Shown in pieces: positions 44,271 through 54,600 of a stretch of DNA of 64,000 nt. Numbering within the stretch: position 1 is the stretch's first letter; every line of letters starts with the position of its first letter. Source of the DNA: Neophaeotheca triangularis (taxonomy: Eukaryota); the NCBI GenBank assembly GCA_054600435.1, contig BAAIJX010000002.1, positions 496,001 to 560,000 on the forward strand. Direction: 5' to 3'. The position numbers were made by a program, and so were the translations under genes. The notes under the pieces were generated by a model. That model was given only the letters and a program-made list of their open reading frames with translations, ran no database searches and had not been told where the DNA came from.

Positions 44271-44814
44271 ATTGTGTAGTCGTGGAAGTGAAGGTGAAGG
44301 TGGAAGTAATTGGTTGGTCGGCTCTTGAAGATAGGTAAGGTGGTGCGCAATCGCACAGAGCGGCGAAGAGTAGTGACGGTGGTTGTCGGGTCAGTGGGAG
44401 AAAGAGGCAGGGCTAGTTGGCGGGTGTTGATGGTTGAGGACAATCGCTCATTGTCAGCCGGGCTACGGTCCGGCAAGGGCAGGCGCAGTGAATGAAGGCC
44501 GACTCCTGCTTTTGGAATAGACGACAAGTGAGGAGAGGTTGCGCATCTTCTTCTTTGCGCCAAAGTGAACAAAGTCTTTGGTGTGCAAAGCAAAGCGAAT
44601 CCAGACCCGCAAGCAAGCAAGGTACCTGAGTGAAGTGAACGAACGACACCTCGAGCACCCACCAGTATTGCTTGGCACCGTACTCGAACTTGATTAGATT
44701 AGGGTGAGGGTTGGATAACTGGATAACTACATGTCAAACGGATATCGATACCGACACCGATACACCTCTCACCGTTTGCTGAACACCTCTACCGCACAAT
44801 AGTCATCCATCGTC

Positions 44815-45540
44815 ATGCCCACCGTTTTGGTCTCGGGCGCAGCCAATGGGCTAGGTGCTGCCTTCGTCGACGCCTATCGGAATCGGCCTGATACCCAGGT
44901 CCTGGCACTGGATCGCGAGACCATCGCTTCAACCCACAACAATGTCAAAACCTTCACCGTGGACGTTACCTCCCAAGATTCCATTGACAGGTTTACGGAA
45001 ACCATTCGTGGCGAAGCGATCGACCTACTTGTCCATTCGGCAGGTATTCGAGGGCTAGTGCCTACGGCTGAAGATCGCCACCCGGACGACGTCGCTGCTT
45101 GCGAGACCATGGACGTGATGGACCCGGAGACAATGCATCGGACTTTTCAAATCAACGCTACTGGGACCTTCATGCTGCTCAGAGCCGTTACGCCCAACCT
45201 GCAAAAAGCCCAGTCCGCAAAAGTGGTCGTTATGTCTTCACGCATGGGCAGTCTCGGTAACAATGAAGCTGGAATCCGCGCTGCAGGAAGTGCGTACGCA
45301 TACAGAGCTTCGAAAGCTGCGCTCAATGCGATCGTTCGTTCTTTCGCGGTCGATGTCCAGGACGTAACGTACGTACTGTGTCACCCCGGACGGGTTGAGA
45401 GTAAGCTTGTGAGATGCTTTGAAGAGGGTGCCATCTCTGCCGAAGAAAGTGTCTCGGGTTTACTGCCACTCATAGACAGGTGGGACAATTCGGACAGCGG
45501 CAAGTTCTACGATCGATTTGGAGATGCCATACAATGGTAG
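44815..45540 (+). CDS. Short-chain dehydrogenase/reductase, CsgA/C-factor-like
   Basis: SGAANGLG, HSAGI, SSRMGS, YRASKAALN and HPGRV motifs. 241 aa, intronless. Confidence 0.88.
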   Translation: MPTVLVSGAANGLGAAFVDAYRNRPDTQVLALDRETIASTHNNVKTFTVDVTSQDSIDRFTETIRGEAIDLLVHSAGIRGLVPTAEDRHPDDVAACETMDVMDPETMHRTFQINATGTFMLLRAVTPNLQKAQSAKVVVMSSRMGSLGNNEAGIRAAGSAYAYRASKAALNAIVRSFAVDVQDVTYVLCHPGRVESKLVRCFEEGAISAEESVSGLLPLIDRWDNSDSGKFYDRFGDAIQW

Positions 45541-45883
45541 ACGTAGAAATTTTAGACCACGACACCTTGTCTATCATATGTGTACAACATAGACGATACA
45601 TAGACGATAGAAGATGCACCCTCTCTGACGACCTTGAAACAAACTTCCCATGTAGACTGGGGTGCGTACGTAAAGACTTTTGTGCTCGGGCTCAGGCCAT
45701 CTACCAGGCGGCCCGCGAACTGTATGCTTACAGCACCAACCCATCGCGGAGTGTACATGAAACATTTCTGTGTACACAGAAGCCACAGCCTCCCTAAGAA
45801 ACAAAACGCCCAGCTTAAACGCACGAGTAATGCCTGCGGGAGACGTCGAAAAGCAAAGAAGAGCACACGAGTGGCGCCCGCGT

Positions 45884-48383
45884 CTAAAAAGACCCTTGAA
45901 AGTTGAAATGGGCGCTCGCGTCCCCGTATGGATCCTGCCCAGGGGAGAAAGCCTCGTGGACGAAGTTCCGCAGGTCTTCCTGCGCGGTCAACGCATCGAC
46001 TTGCTGATTGTGGTACTCCATATGGTGTGGTGAGATTTTTGTGCTCTCATTCCCCTGGCTCTGGACAGTGCTCGGTGTTGGAATGGAAGTCGACGAGCGG
46101 CCCCCGCCTGATGCCGGCTGCTGAGAGGCTTGGGATTGGCGGGATTGGTCGCTGTTTACGCGCTGCTTGAAGTCTTGCTGCTGGCTACTGGCGTCGTTGG
46201 AACCGGGATTGGAGTAGCTATTTAGTTTTCGGGATTTCGCGTTCTTCTTGGCTTTTGTCCCAAGTATTAGCATTCGCTCTGGGGAGGGGGCAAATTTATC
46301 AATGACTTACGGGCACCGTGTTTGTTCTTGAACCACTTCTCCATCATTTGCTCCACCATCGAGATCCTCAAATCGTCTGCCCGGTCCCAGGCGCAGTATC
46401 TTAGAGTGTTCAGTCCATGCTGCATAGTTTTCTCGTCCTCATGGTAGGCTGCGTAGCCTATGGCATTGGTAGCGTGAGGCTGCGACTTGTGTAGCGCCGT
46501 CCGATACAGCGGAGTTAGCGAGGCTATGAAGGTCGTCATTGGATGAACGGCGGGATTCATCCTAATGTAGCCAAGAGATCGCTGATACGTATCGGACAGT
46601 TTCAGCATCGACGAAGCAGCTTCAGTAGCTGTTTGCAGGCAGGAGCCGAAATTGACTTGTTGTTGTGGCAGGCTCAAGCCGGGTCGGTGAATCAACCATC
46701 GCACGTAATGGAAAAGCATCTGCTCGTTGGCGTAGGAAGCCATAGTAGCAAGTTCTTCCAAGCCTTCCGCGTTCGGATCGGGGACATCTTCCGGCACTTC
46801 ATCAGCGGAAAAGTCCAGTGACTCTAGTAGATGGTCGCAGCAGAGACGATTCATCTGCTCTATCTTGGTAGATGCCTGTTTCCGCCGTCGCGTCGTATAC
46901 AGTACGTCGAGCACCCTGCTAAGTATCCTCGCCAGGCGACAGACGGAAATGAAGCGGTGAATCTTGCTCTCGCCCGGCAAAGATTCTGTCACACTCGTGG
47001 ATGTTAGTTGGTCGTCGTCAACGTCACTAGGCTCGGCGATGGTGATGTCTGCCTCGTGCAGTGCTCTGGGAATACCGGAAAGCGCTGACGAGAAGAGATG
47101 AAGCATGAAAGTACACCAGAAGATTCTGCGTCTCATTTCCGTTTCAAGCGGGTTACCAGTGTAACGATTTCCATCGTGATGTAGCCCGCACTCCAGGGCC
47201 TTGATATTGGCGATGGCGCTGAGTCGTAGCGCTTCGCTTCGCTGTCGTAGCATTATCAGAGCATAAGCATGCAGCGAAAGCGTCTGTAGTCTAGTGAGGC
47301 CGTCTCTCCTCATGTGCAAAGTGGCGTAATGGCACCGGCAGCCCGCTTGCAGCGCCTCGATCTGCCGCGACGTCCGCTCTTCTCTAGTCAGCTCGAGGCT
47401 GAAAGAATGACCAATGGACAAAGCCAGGTAGAACTGTGCGAGCATTTCGAAAGATTCTGTCCCTATGGTGTCCATGGAGTACAATTCGTCTATCACAACG
47501 ATGAAGGTAGGCCGGTGCAGAATAGGAAAAGATCGCTCCGTGAAGATGAAAAAGTTGGATATTATCGGATCAATGGAGGCCCGATCTGGCAGGTTCGTAG
47601 GGGAAACGCTCCAGAGGAGGTGGTCGGACTGTTCCAATGCGTTGCCTCTACTGAAATCGTCCAGACTGAACAGCGCATAGTCTAGCCAGGTCAGCCAATG
47701 CAGACTGATATTACCCAATATTGCACTTACAAGCTGGATCTTCTTGTTGGTCCTAAAGAACGGTCCTTGGTTAGCGAAAATGGTGCCTGTGAGTGCGTGG
47801 CAAAGTCTACTACCCACCTCGTCTACGACCTCTTGAAGTACTTGCGCAGAGAAGCCAATCCCAGACGAGGGCCCCATGTATCGTGACAAGCCGTCCTCGT
47901 CAATCACGTGGGTTCCTAATTCTTGCAAGACAGTCAAGTCCGGCTTATTGGGCCTCTTTGCAGAGGCTTCAGGAGAGTCAGCAGTCTTTCCTTGCTGGAA
48001 CGAATCGCGAGGGCCGGCGCCGCTCAGTGGTGTTTCACTGGGAGACGGCTTCTCCTCGACCTTGCCCTCGAGTTGCCGAACGCGATCCTCTAGGTACTGA
48101 ACATATGACCTGGGAGTCGAGTTCTTGGACAATCTGACCAGAAAATGTCAATCGAGTGAAGCTTGGCAAGCTACTTCCGATCCTCTCACCTGGCACCTCC
48201 CTCGCAAGGGAACTTTGCTGCAAGACAATTGGAGCATGGTCTCCTCCCATCACACTGAGCGATTATTAGCTAGTGGTCGAGTTGCAGTAAACACGTTGGT
48301 CTCCTTTCCTTTATTTTTTTCGTGCGACAGCGAATGCAGACTGTAATGACATCCTTGTCGTCACCCTGTCCCTCAGCCGGCAT
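45884..48383 (-). CDS. Zn2Cys6 transcription factor with fungal-specific middle homology domain
   Basis: Exons 48383-48309, 48254-48190, 48133-47818, 47752-47731, 47681-46311, 46251-45884. CIRCRTKKIK|CDGRRPCSNCLAAKFPC, YVQYLEDRVRQLE, YMGPSSG, FPILHRPTF, GLHHD, EMRRRIFW. The first intron has a GA donor. Confidence 0.85.
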
Positions 48384-50320
48384 GATGAGAACTCTTCAAC
48401 TTCTTGCGAGCGTTTGCGATGATCATGCCAACAGCTACACCTCCAACGGACCTCAGGCCATGAAGGTGGCTAAGCAGGTGTTGGTGGAGGTGACAGAGAC
48501 GCCGAGAATGATGTGCGGTCTGGTAATGATATCAATTTTCCAATAGTAGTTGCGTGTAATGCATTGCTTGCGTATTCACGTGATGTACTTTGTTCGCCCT
48601 TGAAGTGAATCAAGTCGCCTCGCCACCCGTAAGAGACTACTTAGGTAAGACAAGAGGTACCTAGATTCGAGTGTAGGTTGCTCCAAGACGTGCACGTGAC
48701 AAGGAGCGTTCGAAATCCGCAACCTTTGAATTTCGGCGGTTCGGATAACTTACGGCGACCTCACCCTTTGAACTTTGCACCCTTTTGGACAGCAACAATA
48801 ATAATAAGTCAAGGTACCTCGGGCTATCATTATTAACAACGTGCTAGTCAATTTGGCATTTTAGTATGTAAAGTATTTTAGTAGTGACAAGTCACACTGC
48901 CTTACGCCACGCCACCTACGACCACTACGCTCGCCTCTATCATGACAGGTCACAGGTACCGATACTGCGAAACCTTCTTATAAACTTAACAGCATCAATG
49001 TCATCATTTGCACCTCGTGAGTAGTCCGAGGTCATAGCAGTCGGTCATATACACTCCAACGGCCGGTCAAAGGCAACCCGAGACGAACAGCTGCCACTAT
49101 TACACGAAGCCGTTGCTGCTCCCAACATGGTATCCCCTACAAATGCGTTTTCAGGACAGAACCCACTGCCACTGGCTCCTGCATGCGTCAGCGCTGTCTC
49201 AAGTCTCAGCTTTCGGCTACTTTACGTCCCGAGACAGCTCTATGCCGGTAGGCAGGTATCCAGTCCATGTAATTGCCGGTACTTGTACACGTGGAGCGGG
49301 ACATGACCGGCGACCACCTATAAAAGTTACAACTTTTACAAGTTGCAAGTCCCCGCGGAACATGCGGGAGCATACGGGAGCTTTAGAGGACTCGAAATGG
49401 ACGTATGCGTACAAAGGCACAGTGATAATGTCTATTGTTTCGGGGCTGCATCACGTGGCAAGCACCAGGCTGGCTCTGACCAGCCTTTCCACAGTGAATA
49501 TTTGCTTCGACGACGGCCAATGGGAGAATGCTTTTTCACAATGAGCCCAATCTCCCGGAGTCGCAAGAGAATCACGGACGGTCGTTCGCGGATACGGCAT
49601 GACCTCTAAGCGCCCTTTAAGAGTACAGCATGGACGTGAGAAAATAGCCTCGGATTCTTGTTGTTGGGAGGTGTGGCCACTACTTGTCACGAAGACCACG
49701 AGGTACCGGCTGATGAGTTGACATGTCATTACAGTACCTTTCTTTGTACGCTCAAAACAAGACCACCTTTGGCTCGACAAGCTGCAGGACTAGCACAAAG
49801 CTACGATACCCCACCTATCAAAGGCAAACGGCGGTCACTCAGGGCCACACGGATACCTGACAACCTGCCAACGTCCACTGACTACGGCTCTTCGGCGAAG
49901 GCAATGGGCCTTCGGTCGCCTGGCGACGCCAAGACAGGGACTATGCCAAGCACAGAGACAAGGCATGTTGTCGGCCATACCCTACATCATTGATTGGCCC
50001 TTGTCTTCCCGCACCATGGCACTAGTGCTTCTTCCTAGTCTTCCAAATACTGTAAGTTACTCTAATGACCCCTAGTCTCCACAGCGAGGAGGGAGACTAT
50101 GCGGAGCATAGCGCCAAGCCGTGGTAAGCATTCACTGCCACGCTGGGCTTCTGTCTTGACCTACATAACCATTGTCTACTCCCTCAATTGCAATCCTGGC
50201 CGCTGAGGATGACCACATTATTCCACGAGACGTCAAAAGACGCCTCGAGACACGTCGACAATCGCAAGCTAGAGACGCTGGGGTTAATCAAAAACACTAG
50301 GATCCTCGAAGAAAGCGACA

Positions 50321-51418
50321 ATGGATGACCAAAATCGACCCTCTCAAGGGGGCGAGCCGCGTACTTATCGATTCATATCTGACCGATTCCACAAAGAGAA
50401 CCTATCGGGACGTGTTCGAGCAGCATGCGTCACTTGCCGACGCCGCAAGGTCAAATGTGAAGGAGTGGAGCCATGCCGCACATGCAACGAAAAGGGACTT
50501 GTTTGTGAGGGATTACCAAAGCGCAAAACCTCTGATCAAGACGCACCACTGGTACCGAACGAAGCAGCAAATGAGTCTCGAGGGGTCAAGAGATCAAGCC
50601 AGGACGCTCTGCTTAGACCAAACGCAGAAGCATTGCACAAGGATCATAAAAGCGATGATTCTGGCTACGAAAGCATTAAAGCCGCAAGGAGTCAGGCAGC
50701 ATCACCGGTCAATATCGAATCGACGATCAAGAATGGCAAAGAATCACAAAAAGCAGGCTCCCACCACCAGCAGTCTCCACGAGGGTACCAGTTCATCAAC
50801 GAGACGCTCACCTTCGGCCAGGGACATAGCCAAGACAACCAACATTACTTCGATGAAGCCACCAGAAAAGCTTCTGCCGCAAGTACTCGAGGCTCACTGG
50901 ATCAATCGAAGGCCAGCAACTCGGCGGACAAATTTCGCTCGCAAGATCAAGGATCTGCGAATCTTATGACGACAGCCCGAGCCCTGGAAGAACAAGCCAG
51001 ATCGCTGCGCTTAATGGCCATTCAGCAAGGCTCGGCCGATTGCGAGGACCAACACAGTCCACACAGCACCACTGGCTACTCAATGTATTTCATGACACAG
51101 GACAACGCCCCACAATCCATCAGCTTCCAACAGCCTCTCGGTCGCGATACGAATAGCCTGTTTCCGGATCAAGTCCAGAGTGTGGACTTTCCCAATCACC
51201 CCGGCCTTACCTCAGGGCAATGGTGGAGCCTTTACAACGATGTTGGGCAGCATCAGAATGGGCCGCATCCAGCAGCACGTTTCGATTCCATGGCCGACTT
51301 TTCGGGCAACACTACAGTCTCCGGTGATTGCGGCGCCTTTGACACTTCGTTCACCAATAACATTGCAACAGATTGCTATTCTTGGCAGTTCCCGTCATGC
51401 GGACAAGGGAACGCATAG
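50321..51418 (+). CDS. Short Zn2Cys6 transcription factor (365 aa, no obvious middle homology domain)
   Basis: RAACVTCRRRKVKCEGVEPCRTCNEKGLVC followed by an S/Q-rich disordered region and an aromatic/acidic C-terminus. Confidence 0.88.
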   Translation: MDDQNRPSQGGEPRTYRFISDRFHKENLSGRVRAACVTCRRRKVKCEGVEPCRTCNEKGLVCEGLPKRKTSDQDAPLVPNEAANESRGVKRSSQDALLRPNAEALHKDHKSDDSGYESIKAARSQAASPVNIESTIKNGKESQKAGSHHQQSPRGYQFINETLTFGQGHSQDNQHYFDEATRKASAASTRGSLDQSKASNSADKFRSQDQGSANLMTTARALEEQARSLRLMAIQQGSADCEDQHSPHSTTGYSMYFMTQDNAPQSISFQQPLGRDTNSLFPDQVQSVDFPNHPGLTSGQWWSLYNDVGQHQNGPHPAARFDSMADFSGNTTVSGDCGAFDTSFTNNIATDCYSWQFPSCGQGNA

Positions 51419-51677
51419 ATCTGCGCCGGCTTGAATAGGATCTTCGTTGCGCACGGCCATGCATATGTGACTTGGCAGAAGGAAAGGGCCGTAACAACAA
51501 GGCAAGCAGAGTTAACTAGGGGAAAGGTTTTCAGGTTTGAAGATTCGTGCCAATTAGCGAGGTGCGAAAGGGCATATTGCACAGAGGGGAGGCGTTTGTT
51601 AGATTATACCAGCACCTGGCGCCATATAATTCCGTTCCACATTCGCAAGACTACTCATTCCCACACCATTGCTATGG

Positions 51678-54600
51678 CTAAGCTGCCTCCTGAATCTTCT
51701 TGCGTCGTTCTTTTGCATTCTTCCCCTTGCCTTTGCTGCTTGAAGCGGCGGTCTGCTTCTTGGACTTTCTCGGGGGCTGCTCGAAATCGCTTCCCTCTTC
51801 GACTTCCGAGGTGGCAGTGTCTGCTTGGCGTGCGCTCGAATTGCGCTTCTTGCTGCCCTGGCCCGACGACTTTGCGCCATTGGAAGCTTCCGCATCAGCT
51901 CCCTCCAAGGCACCATTGTCATCAGCCGGTGCTTCGGCGCTTTGCCTACCCCCCTTTGCCTTCTCCGCTAACCGAGTCAACGCACTCCCCATGCGCTTAC
52001 TCCCCTGAACTCTCTTCCTAGGCGCGAAGCTTTCCTGGCCTTGCCCGCTACCACCACCACCTGCGGCGCCGAGACCTACCGAGCCCTCAAAATACCTCGT
52101 CAAATTCGCTTGCGTGCCCTCGTCCATTCTGCGATTCATGTCACGGATGACCGGAACGAGCACTTCGTCAGTACGCTCCTGGCTCCAGCCAATCGTCGCC
52201 ATGAGAAAGGAGCGCAAGGCGTCTAGATCCGGCACGCCCCACTGAAAGGGCTCAGGGTCAGCGTCAACTTCGGGCTCAAGGTATGCAGCGTCGACGCGCG
52301 GGTCGGGGAAGGCTGGGGGCAGAAAGAGCTTGCTAGCCTGACGGCGAAACTTTTTGCGGAAAGCGCTGTTTGCGTCTGCGGACTTTGGTATTGACGTGTC
52401 TTGCACGCCGGAGTACCACTCTTTGAAGGCGTCGAGAGAGCCGAACTCGGCGATCAGCTCAAGAGCAGTGACCGGACCAACGCCGGGGAGGCCCTCGGTG
52501 TAATCGCTGCCTAGAAGGTGGGCGACGTTGATCAGCTTTTGGCGGGTGAGGTCAAACTCTTTCTCGAAATCAGAAGCTAGGTAGCATTCGACGAATTTTG
52601 CTTGGTTGAACATGTTTTTGTAGATTCTCGTGCCACCGAAGAGGAAGCAGTCGCTGTCGTCAGTGACTATGCCGTCGACCAAACCCGAATTGACTAATTC
52701 TGCACACTGTGCTTCTGCTTCCATTGGCGCTGTAACGTACGGTAAACCAAAGAGCTTGAGTAGTTGTTGGCATTCTGTGACCATGATATGGGTGACTTCA
52801 TCAGCGTCTCGGCGGTCCTTCTTCTGCTGACTGCGTAGTTGTTTGAGCTCCTTTTCGTAGTCTTGAACATTCTGCTCTTGGGTTTTGTTGTTCAAGCTAC
52901 TCGCAAAGCGTGCGTGCTCTCCAGCCTCAGCAGCGAGAGTGCGTAGAAGCTCTTCCTCTTCAGGGTCATAGAACTCGTCGAGCTCCGGTATATCTTCCAT
53001 GCCACCTTCCGGTAGTGTCTCCTGTTTAGCGAGACCTGACGCAGGCACGGACCCTGCTTCTCCGACATCATCGTGTTCGGCAGAAGTCGCCATCTTGGGC
53101 TCCGGCGGATTCTCTTCACCCATGCCAGCAACGTCCTCGAACTCCATTTCCGGAGTCAGTGAACGGGAGACCTCTTGCTGCAAGTGGCCACCAGCCGGTT
53201 CCGCATGAGGCAAGGGTTGCATTTTGGCGGCCTTGCCTCCCACGGGCGATCCGTCTTCGCTCTCACTCCAAGCAATCTGTTCGTCCTCAGAATTGCCTTC
53301 GAGTGCAGACCGAGAGAGCGCAGTGCTTCCCTGAGCTTGTGGGGTAGTCGAAGGTTGTGTCTGTGGATCTTGGGTGTCTTCAGGGGCAAGCAATGTAGAG
53401 GCACTGCTCTGAGTCGGGACATGGGGAGCGGCCGATTGCTCTGGCTGCTGAACTGTGATATTGGACGAAGGCTCACCACTCATCTCTTCGTCACTATCAT
53501 CAGCAATGAATGGTCCAGCCCGTGGTGCGGTCGTCACATCAGGCTTTGAGCTCTCTATGTGCGAGGACTCAGGAGGTTCAGCACGAACTGCATCAGCCAT
53601 ATCTCCCATTCTGAGCTCTGGGTCTTGCACAATAGTTTGAGGATGATTCCATGTTCCTTCAGGCGCGCCTTCTGCCTCGGCATCTATGTTGATTGGCTCG
53701 GATTTTCTAATGGACGCCTGCTCGTCTTCAAGATCGATGATCGTGTTCCTCTCAGCTTTCTGGCTAGTCTTCGGTTCGTCTTCCGCATCAAGGTCAATTA
53801 TTTCGTTCTCGTTCTTACGGCTTGAGCGATTTTCACCCCTGCTTTGAAACTGATATTGCTTGTCAAAGTCCTTCGCTCGTTGCCTGTCGTCCGCCTCGAG
53901 ATTCCTCTGCTTGGCAATGTCTTCTTCCAGTTCCCCAGAAAACCAGGGCGGGAGTGGTTCAGCATTTTTTTTCGCAGGCTTCTCAGCCACGTCGGGATTT
54001 TCGAACCCGCCTGCTTGCTCGTCTTGACGCTGTTGTGCCTTCTTTCTGCCAAGTAACGAGGAGCCCAGATCTAGCTTCTCGAAAGGTAGGGGCCCCGAGA
54101 AGCCGTGTGACTTCGCGGCGTCCGTTTGTCGCGCGGGCCTTGCCGGCTGCGTAGGCCGAGCTTGTGACGGTGGGCTGGGTTTGCGCTTCGACTTACGACT
54201 CTCGGCCAAAGCTGCTTGAAAGTCAATGGTGTCGTCCTCGCTGTCGCTGTAATCCGGCTTTGGCACGGGAACCCCGAAGCTGGTGACCTCTTGGCTTTCC
54301 GGGGCGATCTTGTGCGCACGCTGGTTGACAAGAGAAGCGATGCCCCTACCACTGCTTTTAGGGATCGGCCGCGATTCTTCGACTGCAGACTGCTGAAAAG
54401 CGTCAAGCATGTCGTTATCTTCGTGGGCATCTCCTTGTTGCTCTTCCAAGGGCATTGCAATGGCGCGATCAGTATCGGCGTCTTGCGATTCATAATGTTC
54501 GGGTGACCGGTGATCCCTCTGTAAAGACAGCGCAATGGCACGGTTGAGCTCCTCATCTTCATTCGTCTCGCCAAAGAGTTCACCTTCTGCATCCTGCCAA

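Follow-up and report, generated by a model that had tools for sequence, protein, structure and literature searches.

A probable short intron with a GA donor in the zinc-cluster region of a Zn2Cys6/Fungal_trans gene of Neophaeotheca triangularis

In a 64,000-nt stretch of DNA from Neophaeotheca triangularis (contig BAAIJX010000002.1, positions 496,001 to 560,000; hereafter the window), we analysed a minus-strand gene encoding a fungal regulator of the Zn2Cys6/Fungal_trans type, in which the six-cysteine DNA-binding domain is split by a 54-nt interval that begins with GA and ends with AG. This interval (48308-48255) is probably a true spliceosomal intron, short and of phase 0, whose donor is GA; the gene is of the Zn2Cys6/Fungal_trans type and comes from a N. 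triangularis-like fungus. Removal of exactly these 54 nt uniquely restores the zinc-cluster domain, and the GA dinucleotide, carried by two DNA samples, is not a sequencing artefact. That the cell uses the junction, and how efficiently, we infer, because no RNA contig spans it.

A proposed intron dividing the zinc cluster

The sequence reads as the first-pass annotation had described it, with ATA AAG running up to 48309, the 54-nt interval from 48308 to 48255, and TGT GAT GGG starting at 48254. In the lists that follow, a slash in a donor sequence marks the exon-intron boundary. The gene is composed of the following elements:

48309..48383, minus strand: exon 1, 25 codons from the ATG at 48383, ending in ATA AAG, with Cys1 and Cys2 of the Zn2Cys6 cluster (peptide P0001, ending KKIK)
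48255..48308, minus strand: proposed intron 1, 54 nt, phase 0, donor AAG/GAAAGG (GA at 48308-48307), acceptor CAG at 48257-48255
48265..48270, minus strand: branch-point-like motif GCTAAT, branch A presumed at 48266, 11 nt before the G of the acceptor
48270..48272, minus strand: TAG stop, in frame if intron 1 is retained (translation of the unspliced frame)
48190..48254, minus strand: exon 2, with Cys3 to Cys6 (peptide P0002, starting CDG, from TGT GAT GGG)
48134..48189, minus strand: intron 2, 56 nt, canonical GTGAGA...CAG
45887..48133, minus strand: exons 3-6 with three canonical introns within, encoding the Fungal_trans domain
47817-47753, minus strand: intron 3, 65 nt, donor GTGGGT, canonical
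47730-47682, minus strand: intron 4, 49 nt, donor GTAAGT, canonical
46310-46252, minus strand: intron 5, 59 nt, donor GTAAGT, canonical

Matching of the two exon peptides to the Pfam Zn_clus profile placed residues 14-25 of P0001 on profile positions 1-12 (E 0.13) and residues 1-18 of P0002 on positions 13-31 (21.8 bits, cut-off 21), with the two halves meeting between positions 12 and 13 and no profile position skipped. The spacing C-x2-C-x6-C-x5-C-x2-C-x6-C, assessed against the PF00172 pattern C-x2-C-x6-C-x5-12-C-x2-C-x6-8-C, was obtained only once the 54-nt interval was spliced out. With a PF04082 (Fungal_trans) match in the downstream 621-residue frame (82.8 bits, E 2.8e-23, cut-off 23), the spliced gene resembles other regulators that combine PF00172 with PF04082, and its coding sequence comes to 738 codons.

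We enumerated all in-frame, stop-free donor/acceptor combinations, taking donors from 48353 to 48249 and introns of 20 nt or more, and scored the 959 resulting products with two hidden Markov models (HMMs), one built from 18 zinc-cluster N-termini taken from homologue matches and the other from three orthologues with intact clusters. The 54-nt GA-AG removal ranked first of 959 with both models (63.1 and 78.6 bits), in agreement with the cysteine spacing that the first-pass annotation had derived for it. Shifting the boundaries to GG-CA or AG-TC yields the same product, but an AG acceptor is found only in the GA-AG version. None of the nine GT-AG, GC-AG or AT-AC combinations among the 959 kept all six cysteines, and their best ranks were 244 and 223 for the two models. 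Two GT-AG alternatives are relevant here:

48241..48294, minus strand: top-scoring GT-AG alternative, 54 nt, donor AAC/GTGTTT, acceptor inside exon 2; ranks 244 and 223; product without Cys3
48341-48255, minus strand: GT-AG alternative, 87 nt; ranks 290 and 464; product without Cys1 and Cys2

Other claims made from the sequence at first reading were also borne out: the unspliced frame ends at the TAG at 48272-48270, and the only two GTs inside the interval (48294 and 48292) would leave 14 or 16 nt of it in the product when joined to the acceptor at 48255, which shifts the frame. The in-frame GT further upstream, at 48341, which is the donor of the public gene model discussed below, had been missed.

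In all features other than the donor, intron 1 looks like its neighbours. The GCTAAT branch motif, the CAG acceptor and the exon end in AG reported earlier are all there; a YAG acceptor, a CTRAY-like branch motif and a gene-typical length thus occur together in intron 1. Its 54 nt fall within the 49-65 nt span of the gene's four canonical introns, its branch motif is identical to that of intron 5 (according to the exon map, introns 2, 3, 4 and 5 have TTGACA, GCTAAC, GCTGAC and GCTAAT, respectively), and no AG comes between that motif and the CAG at 48257-48255. The donor AAG/GAAAGG matches the fungal donor consensus, which agrees with the four canonical donors of this gene, at positions -2, -1, +1, +3, +4 and +5, and mismatches it at +2 and +6. 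An ORF-pair heuristic tried for a weight matrix of local donors yielded 204 candidates, most of them spurious, and was set aside.

In the mechanism we favour, the major (U2-type) spliceosome would still recognize the GA donor despite the mismatch at +2, because the other informative positions fit (AG at -2/-1, G at +1, A at +3/+4 and G at +5), with a branch motif, a first downstream AG and an intron length that are all typical of the gene. Splicing at AAG/GA...CAG would then join exon 1, with Cys1 and Cys2, to exon 2, with Cys3 to Cys6, and yield a 738-residue protein with an intact six-cysteine DNA-binding domain, although the GA donor is probably spliced at reduced efficiency. Two other routes were rejected: the donor GAAAGGAG does not fit the U12-type consensus [AG]TATCCTT, and RNA editing does not offer a path to GT, as A-to-I editing gives G rather than U. 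An RNA fold across intron 1 gave a z-score of 0.58, with no notable structure.

As a side observation, a 9-nt direct repeat, AGGAGACCA, occurs on the minus strand once in intron 1 (48305-48297) and once in exon 2 (48245-48237), with the copies 60 nt, not 54 nt, apart. Arg-Arg-Pro is what it encodes in exon 2 and also in intron 1 when that is read through. Direct repeats of such length came up in 37 of 5000 shuffles; this one was spotted post hoc and is only mildly unusual. It led us to consider intron sliding or a duplication scar, and we make no claim of either.

The GA dinucleotide in two samples and selection on the gene

The GA donor could in principle be an assembly or base-call error, the true minus-strand base at 48307 being T and the intron an ordinary GT-AG one. 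Nothing specific speaks for this formal possibility, which attaches to any single-base oddity, and two sets of sequencing data speak against it. In run X1, all 298 sampled 31-mers of 45850-48650 were present (share 1.00). The X1 contigs were made with a different assembler, the run is possibly the source of the window, and the sampling amounts to about one word per 9 bases, so that at least one sampled X1 word very probably covers 48307.

The second sample, X2, bears the same organism label and shares 0.61 of the words. An X2 contig of 2436 nt spans 46313-48754 at a depth of ~100 and differs from the window by 30 substitutions (~1.2% divergence) and a 6-nt deletion at 48659. Over all X2 contigs at the locus there are 46 substitutions, 40 of which are listed individually and six by type (two A>G, two C>T and two G>A). 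All three T>A changes are listed (46347, 46666 and 48672) and none is at 48307; therefore, the plus-strand T at this site is unchanged and X2 also carries GA. For the 2436-nt contig, 29 of the 30 differences are listed, and an unlisted C>T at 48308 or 48255, while formally possible, is unlikely. The X2 change in intron 1, at 48258, lies at acceptor position -4 and retains the CAG, and the two in exon 2 (48228 and 48192) are both synonymous. The base check that the first-pass annotation had called for, made here on contigs, thus gave GA in X2 and very probably in X1, and no GT. In addition, published N. triangularis drafts, which may or may not include the window, were sequenced with Illumina 2x150 reads at 146-189x coverage and polished with Pilon (PMC13064199). 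We therefore regard a base-call error as extremely improbable.

Two further features of X2 were noticed. The 5' flank of the gene (48435-48723) carries the 6-nt deletion at 48659 together with seven substitutions. At the 3' end of the gene (45790-45907 and 46174-46342), X2 has two alternative contigs at about half depth (55.9/75 and 61.6/67.9) and a single contig elsewhere; these paired half-depth contigs look like two haplotypes in that sample.

The divergence between the two lineages allowed selection on the gene to be estimated. The 40 listed X2 differences comprise 25 coding changes (19 synonymous and six non-synonymous), six intronic changes over 283 nt of intron and nine flanking changes, some of those at the 3' end having been taken from one of the two alternative X2 contigs. 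Over 509 synonymous and 1702 non-synonymous sites, the listed changes give dS ~0.037 and dN ~0.0035 between the window and X2, a dN/dS of ~0.09. The rest of the gene is free of stops and frameshifts, with its other exons intact and its other introns canonical. Since GA occurs in both lineages, the ancestor carried GA by parsimony, and the shared GA together with the low dN/dS means that the gene was under purifying selection while carrying it. Pseudogene status is accordingly disfavoured.

Three options had been offered for the interval when it was first described. A real GA donor, which as then suggested might limit production of the factor, is the best reading. A recent GT>GA loss-of-function allele is disfavoured by the presence of GA in both lineages, by the 19 synonymous against six non-synonymous changes and by the lack of other lesions, and a base-call error is practically excluded by X1 and X2.

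The public gene model, orthologues and RNA-library contigs

The closest protein to the gene product is P0003, a 727-residue hypothetical protein of N. triangularis, which in spliced mapping matched the window exactly in six exons. Its model places intron 1 at 48341-48255, an 87-nt GT-AG intron with the donor ACA/GTCTGC, and therefore takes part of exon 1 as intron:

48309..48341, minus strand: segment taken as intron in the P0003 model, 33 nt, encoding 11 residues that include Cys1 and Cys2

No PF00172 match was found in P0003. The 54-nt intron fits the gene's four canonical introns better than the 87-nt version, and the latter is probably an annotation artefact of a predictor that allows only GT and GC donors. 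Elsewhere in the same gene, introns 3 and 4 (47817-47753 and 47730-47682, minus strand) are in frame and free of stops, and a 626-codon stop-to-stop open reading frame (ORF) runs through both. Because it reads through these introns, this ORF is 92% rather than 100% identical to P0003.

A more substantial alternative holds that the GA donor is dead. An ancestral GT would have mutated to GA, and transcripts would now either use the cryptic donor at 48341 (87 nt, in frame) or retain the intron and end at the TAG at 48272. The product would be a protein missing Cys1 and Cys2, or a truncated one, without binuclear-cluster DNA binding, and the remainder would be kept for a role independent of DNA binding. 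The public model is exactly such a product, without a PF00172 match, and removal of the 87 nt keeps the frame open. Nearby cryptic donors are, moreover, commonly activated after +2 mutations. On the other side, GTCTGC is poorer than the donors the gene otherwise uses (GTGAGA, GTGGGT and, twice, GTAAGT), 87 nt exceeds all four canonical introns (49-65 nt), and the 33 nt that would be lost still encode, in frame, both cysteines and the basic linker found in orthologues. The occurrence of GA in two lineages ~1.2% apart with a dN/dS of ~0.09 would be unexpected for a factor without its DNA-binding domain since before the split, and neither of the two X2 changes in exon 2 alters an amino acid. These selection data speak against the DNA-binding domain having been lost long ago, short of excluding it. 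The RNA contigs favour neither junction. Taken together, we consider a dead donor unlikely, while giving it real weight.

The orthologues bear on the same segment. Proteins with 49-53% identity were found in Neohortaea, Acidomyces, Teratosphaeria and Polychaeton, and the three with intact clusters (Neohortaea P0005, Acidomyces P0007 and Teratosphaeria nubilosa P0008) carry KKIK-CDG uninterrupted, as the 54-nt splice would have it in N. triangularis. The orthogroup is small and uncharacterized: five full-length members were found, a search with the N-terminal region of P0005 returned the same five proteins only, and Cat8-like proteins are only ~25% identical. In the Polychaeton citri orthologue (P0006), a 23-residue in-frame insert that starts V-G-V-M and ends T-P-L-Q follows CDGQRP and precedes the fourth cysteine. 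This insert looks like an unspliced 69-nt intron, located five codons further downstream than the intron in N. triangularis; going by its place, the intron position within the cluster seems to vary between orthologues. The model of the Teratosphaeria destructans orthologue (P0011) leaves the conserved frame just before the Val-Cys that opens the cluster, at the same codon as the donor of the N. triangularis model, and regains it ~100 residues on. A metagenome scan for orthologue DNA gave one locus (L001), covering query residues 337-742 only and thus without the N-terminus. Run X7, which belongs to the study of X1, gave no matching contig at 80% likeness, a result that does not speak for absence. 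A search for exon 1 read-through ORFs in relatives gave no candidate among proteins of near-query length; the sole match of an exhaustive phmmer search, P0035, is a 1731-aa tandem-repeat protein that scored by summing a short repeated motif similar to the N-terminal residues and was dismissed as spurious.

Three contigs from RNA libraries (X3 and X5) map to the gene:

46552-46871: X3 contig, 100% match, exon 5, with adapter-like loose ends at both sides
46901-47051: X5 (polyA metatranscriptome) contig, 100% match, exon 5
47187-47337: X5 (polyA metatranscriptome) contig, 100% match, exon 5

The loose ends of the X3 contig are presumably template-switch cDNA adapters, and the X3 and X5 contigs have the window's letters at seven sites of X2 difference. 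These contigs suggest that the gene is transcribed, with the proviso that DNA can occur in RNA libraries.

Several points weigh against the interval being a functional GA-AG intron. The three RNA-library contigs all lie in exon 5, with no joints reported, and none reaches 48134-48383. A T>A change at +2 is usually strongly deleterious for donor use, and the in-frame cryptic GT at 48341 used by the public model could be the real junction. Finally, most of the selection signal stems from the protein's C-terminal part, and exon 1, with zero X2 differences, is by itself uninformative.

It is also conceivable that the two donors compete. A GA donor that is weak (54 nt) and the GT further upstream (87 nt) would then give a DNA-binding isoform and an in-frame one whose cluster is not functional; transcripts that retain the intron would form a third, non-productive class. 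Each splice is in frame and stop-free, and both share the acceptor and the branch motif; against this, no RNA contig bears on the isoform ratio, conservation of GTCTGC is not evident beyond the Val-Cys codon pair, and the present data do not separate such competition from the other readings. We rate it as quite improbable. A more elaborate version, which we put forward as an improbable conjecture, is that the GA donor is maintained as a weak site opposite the in-frame GT at 48341, so that the gene would make a DNA-binding factor alongside an isoform without the cluster, the latter possibly a built-in antagonist; the frame trouble of the P0011 model might then reflect the same donor family-wide.

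If, as we favour, the GA junction is used, the public model is wrong and short by 11 residues and two zinc ligands, and it is because of the absence of these residues that P0003 is not recognized as a DNA-binding factor. The case illustrates how predictors restricted to GT and GC donors can silently damage gene models at rare donors.

Known GA donors and the surroundings of the gene

GA-AG introns are rare but reported in fungi, as the first-pass annotation had stated. GA-AG falls among the 0.31% of 'other' junction types in Fusarium graminearum, where seven non-canonical genes were confirmed by Sanger sequencing (PMC3577648), and 35 GA-AG junctions (0.038%) are given for Ganoderma lingzhi (PMC11590231). 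Like these, the present case would be a short U2-type intron that pairs a GA donor with a normal AG acceptor and sits in an otherwise ordinary gene; whereas the F. graminearum and G. lingzhi cases come from RNA reads or Sanger sequencing, ours comes from domain continuity, confirmation in DNA and selection. Since GA-AG is already documented in fungi, the locus is a probable new example of a known rare kind of intron. Our literature search found no paper on GA donors in N. triangularis or its order.

Outside fungi, a natural GA donor allele in intron 12 of the Trema orientalis SYMRK gene is described as fully functional and spreading in a population (PMC10668435). It too is a natural GA-donor allele in a conserved gene, but in a plant, with an ancestral GC known from relatives and with function tested by complementation, whereas the present allele is known from sequence alone. 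[quoted passage not shown] They share with intron 1 the AG before the donor and the A after GA, but occur throughout the genome, as opposed to the single case known here. A human FGFR GA 5' splice site, cited in the same report, lies in a conserved gene and is used efficiently, in dependence on a canonical site located 6 nt upstream; the likeness to our case rests on the inferred use of the GA junction, and the nearest upstream GT here is 33 nt off (48341) rather than 6 nt. If the junction is used, the gene would add a DNA-verified, selection-supported fungal case to the few functional GA donors, a list that bears on the tolerance of the 5' splice site at +2; beyond that, it is a single-gene curiosity.

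An Rfam scan of the window gave no match. The neighbourhood is that of an ordinary fungal chromosome, with genes for Spc7/Knl1, an amidase, XPG/Rad2 and a Kelch protein, and two features lie close to the gene:

44803-45540, plus strand: short-chain dehydrogenase
50288-52021, plus strand: second Zn2Cys6 gene, divergent, ~2 kb upstream, with its cluster in one uninterrupted frame

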